A stretch of DNA of 40,981 nt. Source: Escherichia phage J8-65. The position numbers and the translations under genes were made by a program. Position 1 is the stretch's first letter. The number at the start of each line of letters is the position of its first letter. The notes under the pieces are model-generated. The model made no database searches, had not been told where the DNA came from, and saw only the letters and a program-made list of their open reading frames with translations. Shown one piece after another: positions 822 through 40,981 of the stretch. The DNA is taken from the sequence record NC_025445.1. One strand, written 5' to 3'.

Positions 822-928
822 GCTTCCAGTCAGTCAGCAAGCTAAACAGTCATGGATAAAGACGTTAAAACCCACGTAGGCGAACTGATACGGTTTAATC
901 ATCTCAGAATGGGCGCTGATTAAAACGG

Positions 929-1036: not shown

Positions 1037-1467
1037 CAGCACCGAGTTGAAAGGTTGCAAAACAACCTGCTCTGAGTGAACGTAAACTGGCCACGTAGTG
1101 TCACGGCCTCATGGGTATCCGGCGCAGCTAGGAACTGGTGAGGGCACCGCCGAAAGGCAATAGGGGTAGCGCCCGGTGCAAGGGAACGGAGAAGCGCGAT
1201 AGACGCAGCGCAGTATCAGCACAATCCCGAACGTCTTATAAGGCGCGGAGTGTAGCGGGTAGGTAGGCAAGCTGGTAACGGTGAGCCGGACTGCTGGAGG
1301 ACTCCTGAGAGTGGATGCAGACAATATCCACGGCGCGAAATGGGCGGGGCGATTTTTCAGGGTAGTGAATCCGACAAGCCAATCAATGCCAACGAGTGCA
1401 GACTGTACGGCGCGTCACAATGGGTTCACTATCCACCTGAAAATAGCCAACAACTGGAGAAATCAAT

Positions 1468-1857
1468 ATGTACCGTATCTATGCAAGCGCATATCGTCAG
1501 GGCAACGCTGAGTCAGTCAATCTGGCACTGCACTGCAAGGCACTGCGAACGGTGCAGGACATGTTCGGAGTGATTCCGGTCACACTGACAGGCAAGTTCG
1601 ACAATGCGTATGAGTTACGCATGGTCTTCCCTGTCGATGGAATCTACGAAATCCGGCAGGCTGTTAAGCTGTTTTGTAAAGCCTTCGAACAGGACTGCAT
1701 CATGGTAGTGACCAAAGACGACGATGCAATCTTCATGGACTCACCGTATCCGGGCAAGCCTGCTGGCAAGCTGGTCAGCAAGACTAACGAGGAAATGGAA
1801 GCCGGGCAGTTCACTGCTTGGACTTACGACGGTGAGCAATTTTGGGTAGTGGAGTAA
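1468..1857 (+). CDS. hypothetical early protein (129 aa)
   Basis: ATG start, GGAG upstream, first ORF after promoter cluster. Confidence 0.6.
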   Translation: MYRIYASAYRQGNAESVNLALHCKALRTVQDMFGVIPVTLTGKFDNAYELRMVFPVDGIYEIRQAVKLFCKAFEQDCIMVVTKDDDAIFMDSPYPGKPAGKLVSKTNEEMEAGQFTAWTYDGEQFWVVE

Positions 1858-2988: not shown

Positions 2989-3258
2989 ATGATTCGTGTG
3001 AGTTTGGTCAAAGACGCATCCGGCAAGGTGGTATTCTACCTGCTGGACAATCAGAAAGGGCTGACCCTGCTGGCGTACGTCAAAGACGGCGACCCAAGTA
3101 CGCAGGAGATTCTGGACTTCCTGATTGGTCAAGAGACCTATAGCGAGCTGCTGTTTGACGTGTCTGGCCGCACCGAAGCTGCCAATATTGAGTACGTCGA
3201 GGAACAGCACGGCGAGGTGACGCTGGAGTTCATCGGCACCATCCCGTTCGCTGAGTGA
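2989..3258 (+). CDS. small acidic early protein, paralog 2 (89 aa)
   Basis: ATG 2989 after AAGGAGG (ORF-track start 2962 is TTG); LDNQKGLTLLAYVKDGD motif. Confidence 0.65.
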   Translation: MIRVSLVKDASGKVVFYLLDNQKGLTLLAYVKDGDPSTQEILDFLIGQETYSELLFDVSGRTEAANIEYVEEQHGEVTLEFIGTIPFAE

Positions 3259-3265
3259 TTACTGA

Positions 3266-3287
3266 CAGGCCATCTGCGGGTGGCCTG
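3266..3287 (+). promoter_or_regulatory. post-stop GC-rich stem-loop
   Basis: TGATTACTGA then CAGGCCA-tctgcggg-TGGCCTG; same stem as 2937-2959. Confidence 0.4.
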
Positions 3288-3328
3288 AACTGTACTCACC
3301 CAACAATCAAAGTCTAAGGAGACTTATC

Positions 3329-3604
3329 ATGGCAAATGGTTACATCGTACGTGGCACCGAATCAAACAAAGTCGTGGCCTACGCACTGGAAAAGAGCGGC
3401 CACTATCTGGCGCACACTCGCCGCGACAACGAGCCGACCGATAGCGAAGGCGTGTTGGCCGAACTGAAACGCGAAGGCGTGCCGCCTGAACTCATCTTCA
3501 TCCTGTCTGGTATCCAGATTCACGAACTGCAAGATGCAGCCAAGCGTGTGTGGGGTGAGGGCGTAGAGCTGGAGCACATCGGTATCGTGGACGAAGCTGC
3601 GTAA
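3329..3604 (+). CDS. small acidic early protein, paralog 3 (91 aa)
   Basis: TAAGGAG RBS; LEKSGHYLAHTRRDNEP motif related to paralogs 1 and 2. Confidence 0.6.
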   Translation: MANGYIVRGTESNKVVAYALEKSGHYLAHTRRDNEPTDSEGVLAELKREGVPPELIFILSGIQIHELQDAAKRVWGEGVELEHIGIVDEAA

Positions 3605-3619
3605 CAGCGGGATTGACTC

Positions 3620-3643
3620 AAGCCAGTGTCTCGGCGCTGGCTT
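3620..3643 (+). promoter_or_regulatory. post-stop GC-rich stem-loop
   Basis: AAGCCAG-tgtctcggcg-CTGGCTT. Confidence 0.35.
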
Positions 3644-3680
3644 TATGGCAATACTGCCCCATCCATTTGAGGATTTAAAC

Positions 3681-5392: not shown

Positions 5393-5631
5393 CCATCATC
5401 AAAGACGAAAGCAAACTCGAAGTCGGTTCCGCATACAAGCTGAGCGGCGGTGTGTTCTGTTCGGTTGCACTGGACGTGAACGCAGGCAAGTTCATCTTCA
5501 AAGGGCGTGACGAATACAACCCGGACATGCTGCACTTCGAAGGTGTTACCGATGGCCGGGCGCAGTTCTTGTACCCGGAGCGGCTGGCCGATGGGCAGTA
5601 TGATTTGTCCAAGGTTGAAACAATCAAGTGA
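5389..5631 (+). CDS. hypothetical protein (80 aa)
   Basis: ATG start, GGGAG upstream. Confidence 0.55.
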   Translation: MTIIKDESKLEVGSAYKLSGGVFCSVALDVNAGKFIFKGRDEYNPDMLHFEGVTDGRAQFLYPERLADGQYDLSKVETIK

Positions 5632-5663
5632 CTTACTCGTGGCATTTCGTGAGAGATGCCACC

Positions 5664-5903
5664 ATGAAAGTAACTGTATTGCACAACATCGGAGGAGATA
5701 TGCTCAAAGTAATATTGTTGTTCCTGCTTCTGGTAATTATTTGGGGAGCGTTATGGGTGGGTCTTGCATCACTGGTGCTTATCCCTGCGGTCGGTGAGTC
5801 AGCCACTTCAACACTGGGCACACTGCTCGGCATGTTGGTGGGCTGGGGTCTGATGCAGTTGAGCCTGAGTGTAGGCCAGAATCGGGGGTGGATTAAATGG
5901 TGA
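5664..5903 (+). CDS. small membrane protein with two predicted TM helices (79 aa)
   Basis: ATG 5664; VILLFLLLVIIWGALWVGLASLVLIPAV and LGTLLGMLVGWGLMQLSLSV hydrophobic segments. Confidence 0.55.
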   Translation: MKVTVLHNIGGDMLKVILLFLLLVIIWGALWVGLASLVLIPAVGESATSTLGTLLGMLVGWGLMQLSLSVGQNRGWIKW

Positions 5904-6337
5904 AGCCTAAGTATAAAGTCGGGGATGAAATCGTAGGCGACGAAGGCACTGGCACCCGGTCGGGTAAGCTGAGTATCATCGCTTGGGTTAACCCTGACCG
6001 CCGAGCGTGGGAGCGTAGCGGGGAGACTCGTTACATCGTGAGCTGGATTGGTGAGCGCCTGAATGCGCAGCCGGATATCAGCCACTACAAATCTGACTGG
6101 CTGGAAGAGAACACCAGTCTGGTCAGCACGCCAGCCGAGAAGCGCGGTCGGTTCATGTGCTTGGTCGAAGGCAGCAACGCGCCGCCGAAGGTTGAGCACA
6201 TCACTGAGCGCGAGGCGCGTGAAGAAGCTGAACGTCTGGCAGAGCGGTGCGGAGGTACTGTCCGTGTGCTGCAAGTTGTGGCCAGCGTGAAGATGAAGAA
6301 GAAGATTCTGTACACACCGGACTGGGATAACGAATGA
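5897..6337 (+). CDS. hypothetical protein (146 aa)
   Basis: ATG start overlapping upstream stop. Confidence 0.55.
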   Translation: MVKPKYKVGDEIVGDEGTGTRSGKLSIIAWVNPDRRAWERSGETRYIVSWIGERLNAQPDISHYKSDWLEENTSLVSTPAEKRGRFMCLVEGSNAPPKVEHITEREAREEAERLAERCGGTVRVLQVVASVKMKKKILYTPDWDNE

Positions 6338-13271: not shown

Positions 13272-14205
13272 TGTAGACCAATTCGACGGGTACGTTGCGG
13301 GGCGCGTACTTCTTTGCGATGCAGACTCAACAGTGTATGTGGCCGCAGCCACAACGAAGAACATCGAGACAGCCAAGACGCGCTTCTGCTCCGGCGTCCT
13401 GACTGCCAAGTTCCTTGCTAATGCTCAGTCGGTTCGTATCGAGCTGACTGCTGCTGAGTGCAAGAAGGCTGGGCGGTACAAGCTGCGCGGTGTCAAGCTG
13501 TACCAGAGCAACCGTGATAAAGACCGGAAGCCGGGATTGGTCGAGCCGCTGCGCAAAGCTATTGGCCGCAACATGTTCAATATCCCGGACGGTGAGGATT
13601 GGTACGTTCACCTGAACTTCGACGTTGAGGCAGACGACACCTTAATCATGGACGCTTGGACGCTGGGGCTGGAGCACGCTGTAATCTACAGCGCTGACAA
13701 AGACCTGCGTTGTTGGCCGGGGCGCTTCCTCGACCCGTACGACAACAAGGTGCTGGAGCCGTGCAAGGGTATCGGCACGCTGTGGTGGCACGAGACGAAG
13801 AGTGACAAGTCTCTCATCGGTCATGGCCCAATCTTCTTTTGGGCACAGATGCTGATGGGTGACACTGCCGACGCCATAGCTGGCCTCGTTAAGTGTGGCA
13901 AACAAAGGGCGTGGGATTTACTGGAGAGCTATCAGGAAACCGAGGACGAGTCAGCCGTAGCCGAGCTGGTACTGCGGGAGTACATGGCCAAAGACCAGAA
14001 CCCGTGGCCAGAAGCCGTAGCCCTGTGGCTGCTGCGCACGCCGGAGTACACCTTCGCCGCTCACCTGAACACGCTGACTCTGAGCAAGGAGCTGCGTGTG
14101 TGGCTCCACAAGAAATTGATGGAGAAGTGGTATGAGGAAAGTGACTGGCGCGACACTGCTGCACCTACGGAAGAGTGCGATGGGTTGTCCTTGCCCACTC
14201 TGTAA
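13228..14205 (+). CDS. 5'-3' exonuclease, T7 gp6 / FEN-like (325 aa)
   Basis: AAGGAG RBS; N-terminal acidic LLCDADS, SADKDLRCWPG and GDTADAIAGL motifs parallel T7 gp6. Confidence 0.75.
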   Translation: MSRLQRLLATAGAIDVDQFDGYVAGRVLLCDADSTVYVAAATTKNIETAKTRFCSGVLTAKFLANAQSVRIELTAAECKKAGRYKLRGVKLYQSNRDKDRKPGLVEPLRKAIGRNMFNIPDGEDWYVHLNFDVEADDTLIMDAWTLGLEHAVIYSADKDLRCWPGRFLDPYDNKVLEPCKGIGTLWWHETKSDKSLIGHGPIFFWAQMLMGDTADAIAGLVKCGKQRAWDLLESYQETEDESAVAELVLREYMAKDQNPWPEAVALWLLRTPEYTFAAHLNTLTLSKELRVWLHKKLMEKWYEESDWRDTAAPTEECDGLSLPTL

Positions 14206-17165: not shown

Positions 17166-17174
17166 GGGGATGTG

Positions 17175-19604
17175 ATGGATTTGCTGGCAGAACAGATTCG
17201 ACTGGAAGAAGAGGCGCGTGCCCGTCACCGGGCAGGCTGGTTAGATAACGTACGAGATGCGATAGACTCAGGCCGCGCCTCGGCGGTGCCACTGTTGCAG
17301 CGAGCGATGGTTGAGGCATACCCCACTGTCGAAGCTGCAATGCTGGATATCCTGAACGAAACTACTCGTGGGTTCGGTGCGCAGTACCGCACGTATCTTC
17401 GTGAAGTTGGGGCCAAGACCTGTGCGTCTCTGGCCCTGAGCATGGCGGTGTCCGGCGCGACCGGGCGTACCGCCGTGACTCAACTGCTCCGCGAGATGGG
17501 GCAGGCAATGATGGCTGAGGTAGTCTATGCGAGAGCTGAGAAGGCTGGCAAGCGCGAGGCTGCGTACATGGAGAAGGTTCGCCGTGACGTGAACAAGTCC
17601 AAGTCCAAGTCGCCGAACCACATCTACAACAAGGCACGCGCTGCCTCAGCCAACGTTGGTGTCGAAACTGAAATCCTGCCACAGCGTGCGCTCATCACAA
17701 TCGGCAAGTTGATGATGCGTGCTGTCGAACCGACTGGTCTGGTCAAGACTGTCCGAGTCGGCGGTAGCTTGAAGAACCGGGCGACGGCGCACTTCGCTCT
17801 GCATGACGATGTGCTCATCATGCTTGAGGATTGGATGAAGCTGCCACACCTCGGCATCAACTGTTACCCACCGCTGATTGTGCCGCCAGCTCAAATCAAT
17901 GCGAATGGCTTCGGCGGTATGTGGCACTCTCCGGGGCAGGCAGCGACGTATGTGGCAATCAGCAAGCTCAAGCACCCGGCGTACCGTAAGTTAGGTATTG
18001 ACCCACTGCCAGTGATTGAGCCGTGCATGATGCTGTCGAGCGTTCCGTTCCGCGTGAACAAGATGGTGCTGGAGTTCCTGCAAGCCAACCGAACCGGGGT
18101 GATGGGGTTGCCTGTTGCGCCAGTAGAACCGAAGCTGCCGTTCACTATCCCGGAGGGCGTAACGTTCAGCCAGTACATCAGCAAGTTCCCGGCTGAGATG
18201 CAGCAGCGTATGGATGCTGAGGCACACGAGTTCAAGGTCAAGACTCGCATCTACCACAATGACATGAAGAAGTTCACCACGCAGATTCAGGCACTGAGCA
18301 GTGCGCTGCGCGAGGCTGAGCAGTACAAAGTGTACGAGCGAATCTACCTGCCGACGTACGCCGACACCCGTGGCCGTTGCTACTATGCCTCAGCCCTGAA
18401 CCCGCAAGGCATTGACGCAATTCGTGCTTTGCTTGAACTGGCCGACCCGGTGCCGTTGGGTAAGGAGGGTCTGTTCTGGTTGAAGGTTCATGTGGCCAAC
18501 TGCTTCGGCTATGACGCTACAGACTTTGAAGACAGGGCAGCGTGGACTGATAAGACAATGCCGCGACTGCGCGAGGCTTGCCGTCTGCCGGAGGCATACG
18601 ACTCGTTCTGGTCTGAGGCTGACAGCCCACTGTGTGCATGGGCGGCTGCGGTAGAGCTGGTGCGTGCGCTGGATAGCGGGAACCCGGAAGAGTATCCGTG
18701 CCGCGTGGTGACGCAATGGGATGCAACATGCTCAGGTCTGCAACATCTCTCCGCAATGCTGCGCGACGAGGTGGGTGGTGCTGCGGTCAACCTGATTGAT
18801 TCCGTAGGACGTAAGGCAGACATCTACGTTAAGACCGCTACAGCGGCTCTGGAGGCGTTAAAGGAAGCAGAGGCAACCAACCCTACGGTCTTGGGTTCGT
18901 GGCTCGTACAGACGGGCATAGAGCGCGGCATGGCCAAGAAGCCTGTGATGACTTATGTGTACGGTGCGACACGCCACGGCATGGTGGATTACTATGCTCT
19001 GTATTTGCGAGAGCACAACACTCCGCTGCCGGAAGGGTACACCCTGTTCCAGTGTGCAATGTACATCGCCGGGTTCATGTGGGATGCAATTCCTCGCGTG
19101 GTGCCGAAGGCTGCTGAGCTGATGGCGTGGCTGCAAGCTATCGCATCGGAGGCAGCGGCTAACGGGGAGTACGTGGAGTTCACTGCTCCGTCTGGTCTGC
19201 GCATGGTGAACATGTATCAGGCTCACAAAGAAACCACTATGGGTATCAAGCTGATGGGTGTTCATGCCATCAAGCTGCGCGAGTACATCGACAAGCCAGA
19301 CGGTCGCAAATGTGCGGCTGCGATTGCTCCGAATTTTGTACACGCGATGGATGCCAGCCACATGATGAAAGTTCTGTGGGAGATGTGGAATAACGGGATT
19401 TACATGGTGTCTATCCATGATTCATTCGGTGTTGCAGCGGCTCATGCAGGTCTACTGCACAAAGTCATCCGTGAAAAGTTCGTGCAGATGTACGAGGAAC
19501 ATGACCCGATTCAACAACTTGCTGTGAGATATTCTAAGGAAGCTCCGGCGCGGGGTCAGTTGGATATCAACGAGGTCAAGAAATCCTCCAAATTCTTCTG
19601 CTAA
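17175..19604 (+). CDS. single-subunit DNA-directed RNA polymerase, T7-like (809 aa)
   Basis: ATG 17175 after AAGGGGA; WDATCSGLQHLSAM, KKPVMTYVYGAT and SIHDSFG match T7 RNAP motifs A, B, C. Confidence 0.92.
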   Translation: MDLLAEQIRLEEEARARHRAGWLDNVRDAIDSGRASAVPLLQRAMVEAYPTVEAAMLDILNETTRGFGAQYRTYLREVGAKTCASLALSMAVSGATGRTAVTQLLREMGQAMMAEVVYARAEKAGKREAAYMEKVRRDVNKSKSKSPNHIYNKARAASANVGVETEILPQRALITIGKLMMRAVEPTGLVKTVRVGGSLKNRATAHFALHDDVLIMLEDWMKLPHLGINCYPPLIVPPAQINANGFGGMWHSPGQAATYVAISKLKHPAYRKLGIDPLPVIEPCMMLSSVPFRVNKMVLEFLQANRTGVMGLPVAPVEPKLPFTIPEGVTFSQYISKFPAEMQQRMDAEAHEFKVKTRIYHNDMKKFTTQIQALSSALREAEQYKVYERIYLPTYADTRGRCYYASALNPQGIDAIRALLELADPVPLGKEGLFWLKVHVANCFGYDATDFEDRAAWTDKTMPRLREACRLPEAYDSFWSEADSPLCAWAAAVELVRALDSGNPEEYPCRVVTQWDATCSGLQHLSAMLRDEVGGAAVNLIDSVGRKADIYVKTATAALEALKEAEATNPTVLGSWLVQTGIERGMAKKPVMTYVYGATRHGMVDYYALYLREHNTPLPEGYTLFQCAMYIAGFMWDAIPRVVPKAAELMAWLQAIASEAAANGEYVEFTAPSGLRMVNMYQAHKETTMGIKLMGVHAIKLREYIDKPDGRKCAAAIAPNFVHAMDASHMMKVLWEMWNNGIYMVSIHDSFGVAAAHAGLLHKVIREKFVQMYEEHDPIQQLAVRYSKEAPARGQLDINEVKKSSKFFC

Positions 19605-19687
19605 TTTAGTCTTATATTTCTTGCACTTAATGAAAGTAACTGTTCTGGTATACCCAGATTACTCTCGTAGTGCATTGGAGATTCTCT

Positions 19688-19870
19688 ATGAAAGACTCAC
19701 CATTAGACAGAGTGACGTTCAACAAAGGACAACTAGCTCTCTTAGAGAAAGCATTCGGTACATGGGAGAAGGTAGGGAAGACCATCACCCATGAATCAGA
19801 TATCTCACTACTGAATAGAGAAGCAGGTAAACAGGACGTGTTGGACTTCATCCGTGAAAGGACTGTGTAA
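19688..19870 (+). CDS. hypothetical protein (60 aa) in low-GC island
   Basis: ATG 19688 with GGAG RBS; atypical low-GC codon usage. Confidence 0.5.
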   Translation: MKDSPLDRVTFNKGQLALLEKAFGTWEKVGKTITHESDISLLNREAGKQDVLDFIRERTV

Positions 19871-20289
19871 TGAAAGTATCTGTAGTGGACAACATACATC
19901 ACACCACGATGCCAATCGACATTCGGATTGCTGTAGCCAAAGGTATACAGGAAGAACGCCAATGGTCTGATTTACCGTGGGATGTGATAGTAGACGCCAT
20001 GTATGATGCCACCGCCAACGGATGCACTGATGTGTATGTCCACGATTCTGACGGTGCTCTCATGGGCTGTGCTCATCTCGGTGAGCTGTTCGATATTCAT
20101 GTGGGGCCGTGTGCCGTTGTAATGGCTATGTATGTATGGCCCCAGTATCGCAACCGGGGAGTGACCCGTCTCATCCTCCGCGAACTCAAACGCGCTGCCC
20201 GGCAAGCTGGGTTGCGCTGGTGCGGTTACTCCCACATGGTACGTCCTTATGTTCAGGAATACCGATTCATTGATTTGGAGAAACCGTAA
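19870..20289 (+). CDS. hypothetical protein, possible GNAT-like fold (139 aa)
   Basis: VVMAMYVWPQYRNRGVTRLILREL resembles GNAT motif A region; low-GC. Confidence 0.45.
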   Translation: MKVSVVDNIHHTTMPIDIRIAVAKGIQEERQWSDLPWDVIVDAMYDATANGCTDVYVHDSDGALMGCAHLGELFDIHVGPCAVVMAMYVWPQYRNRGVTRLILRELKRAARQAGLRWCGYSHMVRPYVQEYRFIDLEKP

Positions 20290-22125: not shown

Positions 22126-23346
22126 ATGTCAGGTGAATACCAACCTACTGCCGCACCCGCTCCCCAAAACGTACCCGCTGGCCCGACCTATGCTCCCTCT
22201 GGTCACAGCGGTAATGATTATGGTGGAAGCCCACAGGTGGTACAGAACCCAGCGCTTGGTCGCTTAGGTACGCCGATTGAACTGCCTCGCGGCGGCGCAA
22301 CTCCGCAGCCTCAGCAGCCTTTCGCGCAGCCGGGCCTGATTCCAAATCAGGAGTACAACCCGTATGCCAACCAGTCGCAGGGAAATCCAAGCCCTTACGC
22401 ACCCGTACCTCAGCAGAACCCGTATGGTTCTCCGCAACCGCAGTCGCCGTACGCGGCACCACCTATTCCGATTAATGGGTATCCGCAACAGGGCTACACG
22501 CCTCCGGGCCAAGCGGCTCCGGCTCAGCAGTTCCAGCAGCCTGTAGCACCGCAGCCATATGCTTTCGACCCGTACGGTCGTCAGCCGGGCCAGCCACAGC
22601 AGCAGCCTCAGCAGCCGCAGCAGCAGACTCAACCTTTCCAGCAGTTGCAGCCGCAACAGCAGCCGCCTGTCCAGAACCAGCAGCTCACTGCTGACAAGCT
22701 GGCCAAGCAGGAAGGAGGTCTAACCCCGGAGCAGGTTGCACAGATTTTCCCTGACCAAACCAGTCAGGCAGTATTCCAAGGCATGGACACCATCGCCCGT
22801 GGCCAGAACATCGACCTGCTTGCAGCGTTCGGTCAGGCTTACGAGCGACGCGACCCGACCTTGGTGAACGACCGTTACCTTGCGCAGTTCGACCCGCAGA
22901 CCGTGGCTATCCTGAAAGGACAGTTCGGTGCGCTGGTAGCCGCAGGGCAGCAGCGCGATGCGCAGATTGAGCAGCAGGTGTACCAGATGGCTGGTGGCGA
23001 GCAACGTTGGAACCTCGCAGTACAGGCATTCAACACCGCAGCAGACCCTGCAACAGTCGATGCTGTCGTAGCAGCAGTGAACTCAGGCGACCCGAATCAG
23101 GTACGTCTGGCAGTGAACACCATCCTCCAGTTCACTGGTGCCCAAGGCAATATGATTCAACGTAGTGGTCAGAGTTTGACGCCCAATGGTGGCGGCCAAG
23201 CACCTCAAGAGGTGATGACCAATGAGGCTTTCCGTCAGCATCTTGGCTGGCTTGAGCAGGCGCACCCGGTTGGTTCCCCGGAATACAACCGTCACTATCA
23301 AGAGCTGGTAGAGAAGCGTCGTCAAGCCAAGGCTATGGGCTACTAA
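22126..23346 (+). CDS. scaffolding protein with P/Q-rich low-complexity N-terminal half (406 aa)
   Basis: position between portal and capsid; N-terminal ~190 aa Pro/Gln/Tyr-rich. Confidence 0.65.
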   Translation: MSGEYQPTAAPAPQNVPAGPTYAPSGHSGNDYGGSPQVVQNPALGRLGTPIELPRGGATPQPQQPFAQPGLIPNQEYNPYANQSQGNPSPYAPVPQQNPYGSPQPQSPYAAPPIPINGYPQQGYTPPGQAAPAQQFQQPVAPQPYAFDPYGRQPGQPQQQPQQPQQQTQPFQQLQPQQQPPVQNQQLTADKLAKQEGGLTPEQVAQIFPDQTSQAVFQGMDTIARGQNIDLLAAFGQAYERRDPTLVNDRYLAQFDPQTVAILKGQFGALVAAGQQRDAQIEQQVYQMAGGEQRWNLAVQAFNTAADPATVDAVVAAVNSGDPNQVRLAVNTILQFTGAQGNMIQRSGQSLTPNGGGQAPQEVMTNEAFRQHLGWLEQAHPVGSPEYNRHYQELVEKRRQAKAMGY

Positions 23347-23369: not shown

Positions 23370-24362
23370 ATGGCAGCTAACTCCTATACCCCGAACCAGT
23401 TCCGTCCACACTGGGGTGGCGCGAACTCTGACAACGACATTCACCTTGAGGTGTATGACCGTGACGTGCAGACCCAGTTCATTTACAACTCCATCTTCCG
23501 TTCCGGTCTGACCAACTTCAAGTCTGTGGCTAACCAGTCCAACACTTGGCGTGGCGACCGCCTCGGCAGCGTGACCGTGAAAGGTCGTAAATCTGGTGAG
23601 TCTCTGGTGAACCAGCCAGTTCGCTCTGAGAAGCTGATTGTCACCGTGGATACCGTGTCTTACATTCGTATCCCGATTGACTATCAGGACGACTGGACTG
23701 CGCCGGACTTCCGTGCTGAGCTGACCCGTAACATGGGTACTTCTCAGGCGAAGGCGTTCGACCAAGCGCACGTAATTCAGCTCCAGAAGTGTGCTGACTT
23801 CGTGCCTCCGACTTCTCTGGCTGGCGCATTCAACGCTGGTATCAAAGAGAAGATTACGCTGACTGGCACCGTCGCTTCTGAGGAAGACGACGCAAGCGCA
23901 ATCGTGCATGGCCACAAGAAAGTTATCGAAGCGTTCATTCGCCGCGATGCCGACCTTGGCCGTCTGGTTACGCTGATTGACCCGGCGTGGTTCAGCATCC
24001 TGCTGGAGCACAAGAAACTGATGAACGTTGAGTTCACTGGTGGCCGTGGTGTGAACGACTTCGCAATGCGCCGCGTTGCGTACGTCAACGGTATTCGCCT
24101 GATTGAGAGCAATGCTTTCCCGCAGGCTGCAATCACCGACCACATCCTCGGTGCTGACTTCAACGTCACCGCCGACGAAATCAAGCGCAAGCTGATTGTG
24201 TTCGACCCGTCTCTGGCTCTCGTTACCGTCGAAGCCCAACCGCTGTTCAACCGCGTGTGGGATGACGAGAAAGAGATGACCAACGTTCTGGATAGCTTCC
24301 ACATGTACACCGTGGGTCAGAAGCGTCCTGACGTGGTGGGTGTCGTAACCACCGAAGCCTAA
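23370..24362 (+). CDS. major capsid protein (330 aa)
   Basis: size and position as T7 gp10; followed by a terminator-like hairpin. Confidence 0.85.
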   Translation: MAANSYTPNQFRPHWGGANSDNDIHLEVYDRDVQTQFIYNSIFRSGLTNFKSVANQSNTWRGDRLGSVTVKGRKSGESLVNQPVRSEKLIVTVDTVSYIRIPIDYQDDWTAPDFRAELTRNMGTSQAKAFDQAHVIQLQKCADFVPPTSLAGAFNAGIKEKITLTGTVASEEDDASAIVHGHKKVIEAFIRRDADLGRLVTLIDPAWFSILLEHKKLMNVEFTGGRGVNDFAMRRVAYVNGIRLIESNAFPQAAITDHILGADFNVTADEIKRKLIVFDPSLALVTVEAQPLFNRVWDDEKEMTNVLDSFHMYTVGQKRPDVVGVVTTEA

Positions 24363-24372
24363 TGGCAAACTC

Positions 24373-24410
24373 GAAGCCCTTCTCTGAGGGGCTTCTATGA
24401 TTGTCGTTAC
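24373..24410 (+). terminator. stem-loop after capsid gene (T-phi-like candidate terminator)
   Basis: GAAGCCC-ttctctgag-GGGCTTC 7-bp GC-rich stem (24373-24395) followed by U-rich tatgattgtcgtt. Confidence 0.5.
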
Positions 24411-24422
24411 AGGAGACTTATC

Positions 24423-24971
24423 GTGACTCTACTCGAAGCAGTAAACATTGTTCTTCGGGCATTGTCTGAGCACACCGTATCCTCGACTGAGATTCGAAAC
24501 CCGTCCGTCACTCTTGCCCTCGACAAGATTGCCATCGCACAGGAAGAGGTTCTCACTGACGGTTGGTGGTTCAACAACATCCGAATCACCATTCCACGCG
24601 AGTCGGATGGTCGAGTCAAATACCCCGCAGACGCACTGAGCTTCATCCCGGATGGGTTTGAGTGTATCGTGCGAGGCGGGTATCTTTACAACGCCCAATC
24701 CCAAACCTTTGTTTTTACTGAGGATGTTCCGGGATTGGTTACTTATGACCTTGAGTGGGATGACCTTCCAAGTCCAGTCCAGCGACTGGTTGCGTATCAG
24801 GCAGCCATCTCTGCGTATGCTGATGATATGGGAGACAATCCTCCGGTGTCGGTTACTGGCGGCTATGCGAACGCATTGCAACAGTGCCAGTCTATCCACA
24901 CCCGTCAACGTCGATTCAATGCTCGCCAGCGTCAGAGCTGGTGGCGATATGAGAGTGCTCGGAGAGGATAA
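24423..24971 (+). CDS. tail tubular protein A (182 aa)
   Basis: GTG start 7 nt after AGGAG; N-terminus parallels T7 gp11; position. Confidence 0.75.
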   Translation: MTLLEAVNIVLRALSEHTVSSTEIRNPSVTLALDKIAIAQEEVLTDGWWFNNIRITIPRESDGRVKYPADALSFIPDGFECIVRGGYLYNAQSQTFVFTEDVPGLVTYDLEWDDLPSPVQRLVAYQAAISAYADDMGDNPPVSVTGGYANALQQCQSIHTRQRRFNARQRQSWWRYESARRG

Positions 24972-27415
24972 TGCCAGTTTACCAAGGCTCGTATAAATCC
25001 ATCCTCGGCGGCGTAAGCCAGCAGGTCTATACTGACCGACAGCTATCGCAGGTTGAGGAACAGGTCAACATGACCTCCGATACCGTTCGTGGCCTGCGCA
25101 AGCGCCCCGGCACTCGCCTAAGTCGTGACGTAAGTTCGACCAACGCGACTGTATGGAGCCTTGGAAATTTTGGCCACCTCCGGTTCTACACCACTAACTT
25201 AGGGTGGGGGATTACCACGTTCATCGTTAACACGAAGACCGGGTACGTGACCTCCATTGTAGAGACAGAGACTGTCCAGTTCATGGGGCAGTCGAATTAT
25301 CTCATCGCAAATAACCCCGACGACATTGTATTCACGACCGTGGGCAACACCATGTACGTTGCCAACTGTTCCAAGCTGCCCGTGCTAATCGAGAACGAAA
25401 CGCGAATGAATCCGGGTCGCCGGGGTTACTATTTCGTGCTGGCTGGTTCCTATGGGAAGCAGTACACAGTGCGCGTACAGACCACGCTCGGTGCCGTGAG
25501 CGCAACGTACACGACGCCCAATGCAGACCAGACCAGTGCGTCTGACCATGCAACGCCAGAGTACATCATCAGCCAGCTCAAGTCTCAGCTCGACGCCGCT
25601 GTGGGTGGTGCTTCTGGTCTTGAGATTGTTCAGGCTGATGGTGCGTACCTGTACCTGCAATGCACTGAGGCTGCGGCAGATATGAACGTGTCAACCTCGA
25701 CAGGTTCAACGTACGCCATTGCATCCAACACCCACACTGTAGACCTGACCACAAAGCTCCCGGCGAGACTGCCTGCGGCGGCGGGTGGGTTCATCATGAC
25801 TGTGGGCGACGCCAGCTTCGCTCAATACTTCCAGTGGAGTTACAATGACTCGCGCTGGGTTGAGAAAGGTGCCTACGGTTCCCCGACCGGGATTAACCCA
25901 AGCACCATGCCGCTGGTGTTCAAGACCTCCGCTACCACGAATCAGCACACTTTCGCTCAGGGTAGCTGGCCGGGCCGCTTGGCTGGTGATGACCTGACCA
26001 ATGCCATCCCTGCATTCACCGATGCGAATGGTGTGGGTATCACTGGCTTGGCCTCGTTCCAAGGTCGCCTGATTGTATTTAGCGGCCCGTACATCACAAT
26101 GGGTTCCAGCAACAAGGACGACCGGAACAACTTCTTCCGCACCACTGTTACGCAGGTGCTGGACGATGACCGCATTGAGTTCACAGCATCCAGCTTCGCC
26201 GGGGCTTCGTTCCGGTACGGGGTGCCGTTCAACTCTGACCTGATTCTGGCCAGTGAGGAACACCAAGCTGTCATCCCCGGACGCAACCAAATCCTGACGC
26301 CGAACAACGCCACCGCCGTGTTGACCTCGACGTACCAGATGGACACCGGGGTATCGCCGACCACCTCTGGCCGCAGCCTGTATTATTCGTACCCGCGCTC
26401 GAACAGCTCGTTCTCCGTCAAGGAGATGCTGCCGTCCGGTTACACGGATTTGCAGTACGTGAGTCAGGACGTGACCGACCACCTGCCGACTTATCTGGAA
26501 GGAGCTAACAGCTACATCTCTGCCAGCACCACGAACAACATCGTCGTGTTCGGCTCGACCACTGAGAAGTCCACGCTATACGTGAACGAGTACCTCTGGT
26601 CAGGCGATGAGAAGGTGCTGTCGTCTTGGCATCGCTGGGAGCTATACGGCACCATCCACGCCGCATGGTTCGTCCGTGAGGTTCTGGTTGTGCTGGTTGA
26701 GCAGCAGGGCCACATGAACATGCTCACGCTGTCCATGCGAGATTCTCCAGACCCGACTGACCCGACGCGTTTCCTCCCGGCAACGGATTACAGCCAGCTC
26801 ATGACTGTGACCAACCCGGCGACGGACAGCTCGTACATCCAGTTCGCGGCTGACGGAATCCAGAAAGCGCTGTGGGATATCATCCAAGCCCGGTATCTGG
26901 CTGATGGCAACTGGGATTTCATGACCACGGTTGTGCCGTCCGGCCAGTACATCGGTGCCGAGGTTGGTATCAAGTCCATCGACACTGCGAACCGACGTGT
27001 GTACCTGCAACCTTCGTACGGCAGCACATCGCTGTATGTGGGCCTGCGATTCACTGCAACGTTCAGCCCTACGCCGCCGAGAATCTTCAACGGCGACGGT
27101 TCGTATATGGACGTGAATAAGATGGTCATCATGCACTACAACTTCACGTTGCGGTACACGAGCCTCTTCACCATCACGGCCAGTGACCGTGGGGCGTACT
27201 CCGCACTGAACATCATCTCCAGCCCGATTCGGTACACGAGTCAGGAGCTGGGTCTGGAGTCAGCAACTCTGGCGAAGCGTGCGCACCTCAAAGTGCGTAT
27301 GGGTCTGGAGGTTGAGTCCAGCAGCATGGTGGTCACGTCCACTACGGCAGGCGACCTGAACATTCAAGGTTTAGGTTATTACATCAAGTTCTATAACAAG
27401 GTTCGGAGAATTTAA
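24971..27415 (+). CDS. tail tubular protein B (814 aa)
   Basis: size (T7 gp12 ~794 aa) and position. Confidence 0.8.
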   Translation: MPVYQGSYKSILGGVSQQVYTDRQLSQVEEQVNMTSDTVRGLRKRPGTRLSRDVSSTNATVWSLGNFGHLRFYTTNLGWGITTFIVNTKTGYVTSIVETETVQFMGQSNYLIANNPDDIVFTTVGNTMYVANCSKLPVLIENETRMNPGRRGYYFVLAGSYGKQYTVRVQTTLGAVSATYTTPNADQTSASDHATPEYIISQLKSQLDAAVGGASGLEIVQADGAYLYLQCTEAAADMNVSTSTGSTYAIASNTHTVDLTTKLPARLPAAAGGFIMTVGDASFAQYFQWSYNDSRWVEKGAYGSPTGINPSTMPLVFKTSATTNQHTFAQGSWPGRLAGDDLTNAIPAFTDANGVGITGLASFQGRLIVFSGPYITMGSSNKDDRNNFFRTTVTQVLDDDRIEFTASSFAGASFRYGVPFNSDLILASEEHQAVIPGRNQILTPNNATAVLTSTYQMDTGVSPTTSGRSLYYSYPRSNSSFSVKEMLPSGYTDLQYVSQDVTDHLPTYLEGANSYISASTTNNIVVFGSTTEKSTLYVNEYLWSGDEKVLSSWHRWELYGTIHAAWFVREVLVVLVEQQGHMNMLTLSMRDSPDPTDPTRFLPATDYSQLMTVTNPATDSSYIQFAADGIQKALWDIIQARYLADGNWDFMTTVVPSGQYIGAEVGIKSIDTANRRVYLQPSYGSTSLYVGLRFTATFSPTPPRIFNGDGSYMDVNKMVIMHYNFTLRYTSLFTITASDRGAYSALNIISSPIRYTSQELGLESATLAKRAHLKVRMGLEVESSSMVVTSTTAGDLNIQGLGYYIKFYNKVRRI

Positions 27416-36632: not shown

Positions 36633-38392
36633 TGGATTTACAACGCCGCATGGTGATGGCAGGAATCGTTCGCGCACACTACGAGAACAACTTCCCGCTG
36701 TTCCTGCATGACTACTTCGCATGGCTGGGCTTTGACCTCACTGAAATGCAGCTCGATATTGGCCGCTACATGGCCGACCGGACGCTCAAGAACAAGTGCG
36801 TCATGGCTCAGCGCGGTGAGGCCAAGTCCACCATCGGCATTGCCCGTGCCCTGTATGAGTTCGTCCAGATGCCTAACGCCACCGTGCTGCTGGTATCTGG
36901 TTCTGACGACTATGCGGGTACGCTCTCGCACGCCATCGTATCTGCCATTATGCAATGGGACAGGTTGGAATGGCTGCGCCCTGAAACTCGCGCTGGCGCA
37001 CGTACCTCTTATACAGACGGTTTCGATGTACACCACGCATTTCGTATTCCTGATAAACAGCCCTCTGTCAAAGCGGTCGGTATCTTCGGCCAGTTGCAGG
37101 GGAACCACGTATCGCTGTTGATTGCCGATGACGTGGAGACTACCAGTAACGGTAGCTCTCCTGCCAACCGCGCCCGTATCAACACCCTGACCAAAGAGTT
37201 CGCGGCTATCGCCAACGACGGCGCAGAGATTCTGTACCTCGGCACGCCGCAGACTCAGGATTCCATCTACAACACGCTCCCGCAGCGTGGCTTCGACGTT
37301 CGCATCTGGCCCGGTCGTTTCCCAACGGTTGAGGAAGAAGAACGCTACGGCGGCTGTCTGGCCCCGTGGATTAAGCAGAAGATGGATGGCCACCCTGAAC
37401 TGCGTACTGGTTACGGTATCCTTGGGAACCGTGGTGCGCAGACTGACCCTCAGCGTTACTCCGAAGAGAAGCAGCTACAGAACGAACGAGACTACCAGCA
37501 GGCAGGCTTCCAGCTACAGTTCATGCTGGACACGTCGCTGTCAGATGCACTGAAACAGACTCTGCATATCCGGGATGTTATCTTCTTCCACGGCTCGCCG
37601 CAGTCTGCACCGGAGTATCTGCACTGGTCGAATCATTCGCGTCACTTGGCCGAGCTGCCAATGGACTTCCCACTCGCTCGCGCCCAGCTCTATCTGGCCG
37701 CTGACTTCTCTGAGACGTATGTACCATTCACGAATACCAAGGCGTTTCTTGACCCTGCTGGTGGTGGGTCGGACGAATCCGTTCTCTTCGCCACAGCTTC
37801 TATCGGCCCGTTTATCCACGTCATCGGTATGCACGTCTACCACGGCGGCCAGACGGAAGAGAACATCAAGGCGGCGGTAGAGTGGTGCCACGAGCTGGGT
37901 GTCCAGCACATCACCATTGAGGACAACATGGGCCACGGTGCCGTGACCAACATGTACCGTGGTGAGATTAAGCGTCAAGGACTGACAATCGGCTGTGAGG
38001 GTATTTACTCCAGCGGCCAGAAAGAAGTGCGTATCATCAATCGGTTGAGTCCTATCCTCCAGCGCCACCGCGTGGTAATCCACTGGTCGGTTGTTGAGGA
38101 AGACCTGCGCCTGTGCCGGGCCATGAACAACGGTGGCCGGGAATATAGCCTGTTCTGGCAGATGCAGAACTTGACGCAGGACAAAGGCTCCATTCCGCAC
38201 GATGACCGCATCGAAACCCTATCCGCTGCCGTGTATCTCCACGCCGAGGTACTCCAGCAAGACGAACATGAAGAGGCCCAAAAGCGTGAAGTGGCCGCCG
38301 CTCGTGAGTTTGTTGCCAACCCAATGGGGTACGACGACTCGAAGTGGCGCAGTCATAAGCGTGTCCGTGGCACTCGTCGGAGAATCCGCTAA
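36632..38392 (+). CDS. terminase large subunit (586 aa)
   Basis: same length as T7 gp19; ATPase-like N-terminus and DPAGGGSDES nuclease-like motif. Confidence 0.85.
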   Translation: MDLQRRMVMAGIVRAHYENNFPLFLHDYFAWLGFDLTEMQLDIGRYMADRTLKNKCVMAQRGEAKSTIGIARALYEFVQMPNATVLLVSGSDDYAGTLSHAIVSAIMQWDRLEWLRPETRAGARTSYTDGFDVHHAFRIPDKQPSVKAVGIFGQLQGNHVSLLIADDVETTSNGSSPANRARINTLTKEFAAIANDGAEILYLGTPQTQDSIYNTLPQRGFDVRIWPGRFPTVEEEERYGGCLAPWIKQKMDGHPELRTGYGILGNRGAQTDPQRYSEEKQLQNERDYQQAGFQLQFMLDTSLSDALKQTLHIRDVIFFHGSPQSAPEYLHWSNHSRHLAELPMDFPLARAQLYLAADFSETYVPFTNTKAFLDPAGGGSDESVLFATASIGPFIHVIGMHVYHGGQTEENIKAAVEWCHELGVQHITIEDNMGHGAVTNMYRGEIKRQGLTIGCEGIYSSGQKEVRIINRLSPILQRHRVVIHWSVVEEDLRLCRAMNNGGREYSLFWQMQNLTQDKGSIPHDDRIETLSAAVYLHAEVLQQDEHEEAQKREVAAAREFVANPMGYDDSKWRSHKRVRGTRRRIR

Positions 38393-40722: not shown

Positions 40723-40981
40723 TCGACCCGAAGGAGCGCCTGCGCCCCCGTACGCCTGTGCGCGTGCGCGTGCATGACGTGTGCGCATTATGCGTGCGTG
40801 CCTGCGCGTGCGGTATTGCTCGCGTGCGTGCGGTATAGTTCGCGCGTGCCCGTTTCCATTGTCGCGGTGTGGTGCTGTGTGGTGCTGCGTCCTGCTGCTG
40901 CGTGCTGCGCCACTGCTACCACTGGACGCGCCTGCGCTGGGCTGCTGGTGCTGGGCGGTGCTGCTGTGTGTATCGGTGGCT
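40723..40981. repeat. right direct terminal repeat (DTR)
   Basis: identical to 1-259; window ends at last repeat base so the true DTR could be longer. Confidence 0.85.

Follow-up and report, generated by a model that had tools for sequence, protein, structure and literature searches.

Taken together, our folding, conservation and covariance analyses suggest that the hairpin directly after the capsid gene of Escherichia phage J8-65 (24360-24409) is probably an RNase III processing signal of the T7 type, located where the capsid cistron ends and in the position that T-phi holds in phage T7, and that its most likely role would be to trim and stabilise the capsid message. The element is a conserved two-tier hairpin with a covarying lower stem, and it belongs to the family of T7 R sites by sequence as well as by structure. 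The window, that is the whole stretch of 40,981 bp analysed here, is a complete linear Bonnellvirus genome of 56% GC bounded by exact 259-bp direct terminal repeats (1-259 = 40723-40981), and corresponds to the IMG/VR contig IMGVR_UViG_2706795724_000001. Its close relative Escherichia phage smaasur, 98% identical to the window in the capsid region, is assigned to the species Bonnellvirus J865 in the family Autographiviridae and has as its host E. coli K-12, which encodes RNase III. Long ORFs of the window lie on the + strand without exception, in the order RNA polymerase (17172..19604), portal, scaffold, capsid, tail tubular A and tail tubular B (Table 1). The capsid protein shares 99.4% amino acid identity with that of smaasur, and its homologues in the relatives are annotated as capsid; in tail tubular A the N-terminus MTLLEAVN is conserved, the relatives using ATG at the position of the GTG of the window. 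These two + strand genes are separated by 60 nt, and it is this gap, the widest one beyond the head genes, that holds the hairpin. Elsewhere in the genome we noted imperfect CAGCAGCCG-type repeats, rich in Gln and Pro, within the scaffolding protein gene (22306-22665), and near the left end two similar sigma-70-like promoters (792-823 and 928-959; GTTGACA ... TGCTGTAATGC), which fit the early promoters expected for the host polymerase.

Table 1. Coordinates of the post-capsid hairpin and its parts, of the adjoining genes, and of related hairpins in the window and in phage T7
Feature	Position	Strand	Basis or remark
Whole two-tier hairpin, candidate T7-type RNase III processing signal	24360..24409	+	fold and covariance models
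Lower stem, 5' arm UAAUGGCAA, 9 bp	24360..24368	+	pairs with 24401-24409
Internal loop, 5' side ACUC, 4 nt	24369..24372	+	invariant in 15 Bonnellviruses
Upper stem, 5' arm GAAGCCCUUC, contains GAAGCCC	24373..24382	+	pairs with 24386-24395, one U.G; 10/10 invariant
Apical loop UCU	24383..24385	+	0/3 invariant
Upper stem, 3' arm GAGGGGCUUC	24386..24395	+	10/10 invariant
Internal loop, 3' side UAUGA, 5 nt	24396..24400	+	5/5 invariant; predicted cleavage inside
Lower stem, 3' arm UUGUCGUUA	24401..24409	+	covaries with 24360-24368
Major capsid protein gene, 330 aa	23370..24362	+	ORF list; stop TAA 24360-24362
Ribosome-binding site AGGAG of tail tubular A	24411-24415	+	sequence
Tail tubular protein A gene	24423..24971	+	ORF list; GTG start 24423-24425
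Tail tubular B gene	24971..27415	+	follows tail tubular A
Second strong site, early-region intergenic gap, loops ACUC / CAUGA	5626..5676	+	R2 35.3 bits, E 6e-7, untrained
Third site, early-region intergenic gap, loops ACUC / UAUGG	3607..3657	+	R2 23.6 bits, E 1e-3
Three further two-tier hairpins between early genes	2526-2580, 2922-2972, 3250-3300	+	weak R2, 12-18.5 bits
R1 match, R1.1	T7 5848-5898	+	46.9 bits, E 5e-10; upstream of gene 1.1
R1 match, R0.5	T7 1428-1479	+	43.3 bits; upstream of gene 0.5
R1 match, R18.5	T7 36817-36867	+	35.5 bits; upstream of gene 18.5
R1 match, R0.3	T7 853-901	+	29.7 bits; upstream of gene 0.3
R1 match, R4.7	T7 13854-13903	+	25.4 bits; upstream of gene 4.7
R1 match, R6.5	T7 18502-18574	+	36.5 bits (default filters); upstream of gene 6.5

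The hairpin lies where a preliminary description of this DNA had put it, with GAAGCCC (24373-24379) facing GGGCTTC (24389-24395) and beginning 10 nt past the capsid stop codon, but the stem of 7 bp with a loop of 9 nt given there falls short of the fold: three extra pairs (U.G, U-A and C-G) form inside that loop, so that the stem has 10 bp and closes on a UCU triloop. Below it an internal loop leads to a lower stem, at whose base stands the stop codon TAA of the capsid gene itself. The two-tier structure folds with -23.6 kcal/mol (z -6.2), an energy that none of 200 shuffles reached; because of its G.U pairs the minus strand of the same segment reaches just -13.2 kcal/mol, which makes the fold specific to one strand. 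Taken alone, the upper stem (10 bp, of which six are G-C or C-G and one is a U.G wobble; -16.5 kcal/mol) has an unremarkable energy, with a rank of about 20 among the + strand 30-nt windows of the genome. Considering that the upper stem is ordinary on energy alone, the case for a function rests on comparison with other sequences.

Within the genus this comparison is clear. Across 15 Bonnellviruses the 20 bases of the upper stem and the nine unpaired bases of the internal loop are invariant at 29 of 29 positions, in contrast to none of the three in the apical loop, which takes five forms (UCU, GCAA, UCAG, UCAC and AUU), and one of the 13 in the downstream spacer; at third-codon positions, 30 of 100 are invariant in the capsid gene and 8 of 100 in the gene of tail tubular A. 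The lower stem varies by compensation: column pair 7-45 is C-G in four and U-A in four of the distinct sequences, and pair 9-43 is A-U in six, G-C in one and G-U in one of the eight, although these sequences are related and the changes may trace to few events. Over the eight distinct Bonnellvirus hairpins 96% of the cells are paired. These counts refer to Bonnellvirus only, since a MAFFT alignment that included LIMEzero and two further loci (L009 and L037) misaligned the stems. The two-tier structure as a whole stands above chance, and the feature is real and under selection. That it could be a functionless chance hairpin in a GC-rich genome is extremely improbable: some 20 windows of the + strand do fold as well as its upper stem alone, yet against chance stand the 29 invariant bases (versus 30% at neutral-like sites), the covariation of the lower stem, an intergenic location, and matches to T7 R sites with E values of about 1e-10. 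Moreover, the conserved letters on the unpaired 5' side would fit the recognition of a specific internal loop, of which a terminator needs none. We also observed that in the phages forsur (L085, 1260-1448) and mellemsur an extra ORF of 62 aa is inserted directly 3' of the hairpin; the insertion in forsur leaves the hairpin with the capsid gene, and the hairpin appears to mark a module boundary.

Additional support comes from outside the genus. We built a covariance model (R1) from the eight distinct Bonnellvirus post-capsid hairpins alone, without T7, and used it to search the whole T7 genome with filters off (the value for R6.5 stems from default filters). Its top matches were R1.1, R0.5, R18.5, R0.3, R4.7 and R6.5, every one on the + strand (Table 1), with weaker matches at R3.8 and R1.3, just before genes 3.8 and 1.3, and over the whole T7 genome there was no match at T-phi. 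We take these matches to be the R sites so named from the genes they adjoin and from the coordinates of the T7 sites, RNase III sites being absent from the T7 GenBank feature tables consulted. A second model (R2), to which five T7 sites were added, recovers R4.7, a site outside its training set, at 44 bits, and finds nothing in the capsid region of phiKMV, in the early and capsid regions of KP34, or at the capsid loci of RSB3, phiAp1, C171 and PM16. On its + strand the hairpin of the window itself scores 79 bits with R1 and 71.5 bits with R2; for the - strand the two scores are 24.9 and 14.8. A search of 24200-24600 against Rfam returned nothing near threshold, and to our knowledge an R-site RNA family of the Autographiviridae is not yet catalogued there. 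At the level of plain sequence the post-capsid hairpin is about 70% identical to T7 R1.1, the copy in phage Lidtsur agreeing with T7 5848-5898 at 36 of 51 ungapped positions (T7 GGGACAAACUCAAGGUCAUUCGCAAGAGUGGCCUUUAUGAUUGACC versus Lidtsur AUGGCAAACUCGAAGCCCUUCGCAAGAGGGGCUUCUAUGAUUGUCA, the R1.1 region having been folded for comparison); in 100 shuffled T7 genomes the best match of this 51-mer was 30, and its second-best match in the real T7 genome is 36817-36867. As an observation apart, the apical loop of the T7 R6.5 match contains the sequence of the phi6.5 promoter, one signal lying within the hairpin of another.

The likeness extends to the features by which RNase III knows its substrates. 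An asymmetric internal loop of 4 nt and 5 nt is the hallmark of R1.1 and holds its primary cleavage site (PMC6121014), and the hairpin of the window has such a loop in the very letters of T7 R1.1 (ACUC/UAUGA), ACUC being found also in T7 R0.5, R0.3 and R18.5 and UAUGA in T7 R0.5 and R0.3. A distal box of U-A and U.G has been described as optimal for recognition (PMC1540722); here U24381-A24387 and U24380.G24388 adjoin the closing pair C24382-G24386 and are invariant. With the T7 R sites the hairpin further shares its two tiers of about two helical turns, the 10-bp upper stem and an intergenic place on the sense strand of a polycistronic unit, with E. coli K-12 as host of the relative, and the GCAA loop of R1.1 occurs also in Lidtsur. 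The agreement is less complete in the proximal box, which in its canonical form comprises four pairs (G-C, A-U/U-A, A-U, A-U/U-A) and excludes G-C from position 2 (PMC1540722). At the spacing of R1.1, and read from the internal loop upward, the window has C.U, G-C, A-U and A-U, with A-U at position 2. The box is only partly canonical: next to the internal loop stands a G-C pair in place of the A-U of the T7 sites. The upper stem is also more GC-rich than in T7. In the R1.1 minimal substrate, binding or catalysis is reduced when G-C or C-G lies close to the scissile bond, and in an alternative register of the box the G-C would lie beside this bond, where such a pair is a catalytic antideterminant (PMC1540722). 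As far as the letters go, this G-C would be the main doubt about the RNase III reading. We treat it as a lineage variant because it recurs at 5626-5676 of the window and at 3250-3299 of LIMEzero. It does bear on another possibility, namely that the structured RNA binds RNase III or some other factor uncut, or is a plain 3' stabiliser or translational insulator. A substrate with G-C beside the scissile bond can be bound and yet left uncut (PMC1540722), and a binder would agree with the strong conservation of the structure, but with the G-C variant present in several other members of the family, and with no 3' end for a stabiliser to protect unless some event forms one, we regard this as very unlikely. 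Two differences from T7 should be added: the J8-65 lineage of the Autographiviridae is distinct from that of T7 and has a phiKMV-like gene order, and T7 itself has no R site after its capsid gene.

The position is nevertheless one at which a terminator is usually found. The preliminary description likened the hairpin to T-phi, and in location the analogy stands: T-phi, at 24210 of T7, follows the stop of gene 10 at 24162 and precedes gene 11, the tail tubular A gene, which starts at 24228; it is likewise a strong hairpin a few tens of nucleotides after the capsid stop. In build the two differ, T-phi having a U6 run, a 15-bp stem and no R-type internal loop, and there is no sequence similarity between them. 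To place this in the family we sampled 80 capsid-homologous loci from IMG/VR and eight more Bonnellvirus records from GenBank, and counted a motif as canonical if the stretch from the capsid gene to the gene of tail tubular A held a hairpin of -12 kcal/mol or lower with 5 or more U in the 8 nt after it. Such a motif was found in 58 of the 74 loci with both genes, namely in 58 of 64 outside Bonnellvirus and in 0 of 10 within it (the window included); inside capsid genes the background is just 0.11 per kb. The stems of these post-capsid terminators have completely different sequences between clades. Terminators are annotated at this junction in phiKMV (25236-25265) and LIMEzero (25202-25236), and have been reported after the capsid gene of KP34-like phages (PMC4411677), Acinetobacter phage AS11 (PMC5537680) and JG068 (PMC3765740), while ONT-cappable-seq placed a strong terminator directly 3' of the capsid gene in LUZ100 (PMC10134795). 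Moreover, the phiKMV-type polymerase of KP34 is halted in vitro by a hairpin terminator of class I (PMC6834552), and the Bonnellvirus polymerase is also of phiKMV type. The terminators of phiKMV, LIMEzero, KP34 (GCCCCTGGTGCC..U9), AS11 and JG068 thus share the junction with our hairpin and stand 0-20 nt after the capsid module, but they end in runs of 5-10 U and have no conserved internal loop, and R2 finds none of these phiKMV-like post-capsid terminators. In the KP34-like loci (L056-L082, at about 2520-2720) we also observed an ORF of about 65 codons after the capsid gene, with the canonical terminator 5 nt past its stop.

Could the hairpin of the window then be an intrinsic class I terminator of the T-phi kind, at which phage or host polymerase releases most transcripts and the tail genes are reached by read-through? 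Its stem is stable and GC-rich, the junction is the one used by T7 T-phi, phiKMV, LIMEzero, the KP34-like phages (PMC4411677) and LUZ100 (PMC10134795), 58 of the 74 relatives have the canonical motif there, and because no promoter-sized gap follows the hairpin the tail genes depend on upstream transcription. However, the U-rich run that the preliminary description saw after the stem is not a U-tract: in the sequence 3' of the stem (UAUGAUUG; UAUGAUUGUCGUUAC directly after it) four of the first 8 nt are U, fewer than the five of a canonical tail, and never more than two U are adjacent. Its tail score is 3.0, next to 2.9 for T7 R1.1, itself a read-through site, 5.15 for T-phi and 6.24 for KP34, real terminators covering 5.15-6.5, and a consensus terminator scan made no call at the hairpin. 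In addition T7 polymerase transcribes through T7 sites of similar build and tail: T-phi is described as the sole terminator for that enzyme, and R3.8, R4.7, R6.5, R13 and R18.5 are late cleavage sites inside its transcription units (bioRxiv 10.1101/106799), so that R sites are not terminators for T7 polymerase, five of them being transcribed. Equally stable copies stand between the early genes of J8-65, and neither the conserved 5' internal loop nor the covarying lower stem has a role in termination. With a tail that lacks a U-tract, and with a model built from these hairpins recovering the RNase III sites of T7 and not T-phi, termination as the mechanism is unlikely. An intermediate case would be a hairpin with two functions, pausing or weakly terminating the polymerase and also cut by RNase III, halfway from terminator to pure processing site. 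Among the phiKMV-like terminators LIMEzero and L037 alone have flanks in common with the window hairpin (ACAA..stem..UGAUUAUG); their tails are U-richer and pass the terminator criteria marginally, and the L037 hairpin scores 22 bits with R1, whereas the post-capsid hairpin of LIMEzero, an annotated terminator, has no match to the model. Given that our hairpin has no U-tract and that nothing in its sequence requires termination, we consider such a dual function quite unlikely.

Relatives of the post-capsid hairpin are in fact found within the same genome, between its early genes (Table 1). The site at 5626-5676 folds in two tiers with -19.9 kcal/mol (z -4.2), and that at 3607-3657 with -23.9 kcal/mol, its loop letters being those of T7 R18.5. 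The three others have weak R2 matches at 2530-2574, 2938-2958 and 3267-3286 and folds of -22 to -25 kcal/mol (z -3.9 to -5.9); in their upper stems (GGCAUUC..GAGUGCC) they are like T7 R sites, in their internal loops they are not. In the early region as a whole the upper stems match the post-capsid one in stability, and, judging from the gene order, in which consecutive early genes share one strand, efficient termination at these hairpins would cut off the genes downstream. A two-tier hairpin can be drawn in each early-gene gap (2526-2580, 2922-2972, 3250-3300, 3603-3661 and 5622-5680), two of them with clear R-site matches; in these two the AUG of the 3' internal loop, at 3645 and 5664, is also the likely start codon of the next ORF, which would lie at the predicted cut. 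Similar sites occur in other phages. LIMEzero 3250-3299 scores 59.5 bits by covariance model and resembles the window hairpin along its whole length, and Lidtsur has early-region members at 3327-3376, 5962-6011 and 1788-1836, the range over the two phages being 30-60 bits. These early hairpins of LIMEzero and Lidtsur are of the same family, but they lie between early genes and not after the capsid gene.

Two further sequence elements of the window were seen alongside. At 1945-1976 it matches at 32 of 32 positions the KP34-like 'phage promoter consensus' AGCCTATAGCGTCCTACGGGGCGCTATGTGAA of Klebsiella phages (PMC4411677), a motif that KP34 RNA polymerase leaves unused in vitro (PMC6834552). The segment around it (1936-1984) folds as a two-tier hairpin of -23.4 kcal/mol (z -4.3), and the element is conserved among phages whose capsids are just ~46% identical; it may serve as RNA, in a structural or processing role, rather than as a promoter. 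The motif TAATGAAAGTAACTG is repeated at 19628-19648, 19868-19888 and 5662-5682, and at 19774-19790 of L095; its first copy stands directly 3' of the RNA polymerase gene, as it does in Lidtsur. This motif is a candidate phage promoter, yet its letters resemble the 3' half of R-type hairpins.

Two other candidate signals close to the post-capsid hairpin were considered and set aside. The first was a phage promoter at 24406-24415, where GTTACAGGAG equals the 10-nt core of the strong KP34 promoter TAATGTTACAGGAGTA (PMC6834552). It is the only exact copy in the genome and overlaps the ribosome-binding site of tail tubular A, and the other Bonnellviruses do not conserve it. The full 16-mer matches nowhere at up to three mismatches, one-mismatch matches to the core are no more frequent than chance predicts (three against 1.9 expected), and we judged the core match to be probably a chance occurrence. 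Nor did the promoter motif of LIMEzero match anywhere in the window. The second was the AUG at 24397 as start of tail tubular A. In the window this codon is out of frame and opens an ORF of nine codons, although in most relatives the AUG of the hairpin loop is in frame with tail tubular A; it belongs to the conserved UAUGA loop, whose T7 counterpart starts no gene. The GenBank records of HHU8, glasur and usur (L083, L084 and L088; 1229) and ROV85 (L086; 1193) start tail tubular A at the internal-loop AUG or so as to overlap the capsid stop. The conserved N-terminus and the ribosome-binding site point to the downstream start as the probable one.

If the hairpin is a processing signal, as we think probable, we infer that its cleavage by RNase III, and with it an effect on the levels of the two messages, would take the following form. 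Late transcripts made by the phage RNA polymerase would run through the hairpin, which would fold into the lower stem, the 4/5 internal loop and the 10-bp upper stem, and the host RNase III would make a single cut, in the 3' strand of the internal loop, between U24398 and G24399. Internal loops restrict RNase III to a single phosphodiester, and the upstream RNA keeps a 3' hairpin that shields it from exonucleases (PMC1540722). The capsid mRNA would accordingly be expected to end 36 nt past its stop codon, in a stable 10-bp hairpin guarding against 3' exonucleases, and the tail mRNA would begin with a 5'-monophosphate and a 24-nt leader before the GTG, its ribosome-binding site AGGAG being left accessible. 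By way of RNase E a 5'-monophosphate end destabilises mRNA, and the tail message would thereby be the less stable one. Should capsid message exceed tail message, the difference would be due to unequal RNA stability and not to termination. For the position of the cut we relied on T7, where the RNase III cleavages listed by Dunn and Studier in 1983 are reportedly at 890, 1468, 5887, 13892 and 36856: all five of these coordinates fall on the U of AU|G in the aligned 3' loops, and the prediction for the window follows from their alignment, its support being this mutual consistency.

The step in abundance between capsid and tail transcripts, which in the T-phi analogy of the preliminary description was a matter of termination, may thus be produced in J8-65 by processing and differential decay. 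The simplest history would be that a lineage with T7-type sites between its early genes placed one of them after the capsid gene in Bonnellvirus, at the junction where relatives have a terminator. More tentatively, and at somewhat less than even odds in our own estimate, the terminator found throughout the family would have been replaced in Bonnellvirus by an RNase III site, drawn from its own early region or from a co-infecting T7-like phage, so that processing and differential decay in place of termination would set the ratio of capsid to tail, and T7-type R sites would more broadly be an RNA module shared, even to the letters of the unpaired loops, by distantly related Autographiviridae of enterobacterial hosts. 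What we describe is a known kind of element in a new lineage and at a new location, an incremental step that brings no new principle. For annotation it is of use, since hairpins after capsid genes are routinely labelled terminators and here the sequence argues for a processing site; for engineering it offers more natural RNase III insulator sites, kin of the widely used R0.5 and R1.1. It also extends R sites of the T7 type beyond the T7 group to phiKMV-like coliphages and LIMEzero, and for the biology of these phages it suggests that the most abundant late message may have two interchangeable ends, one formed by termination and the other by an RNase III cut.
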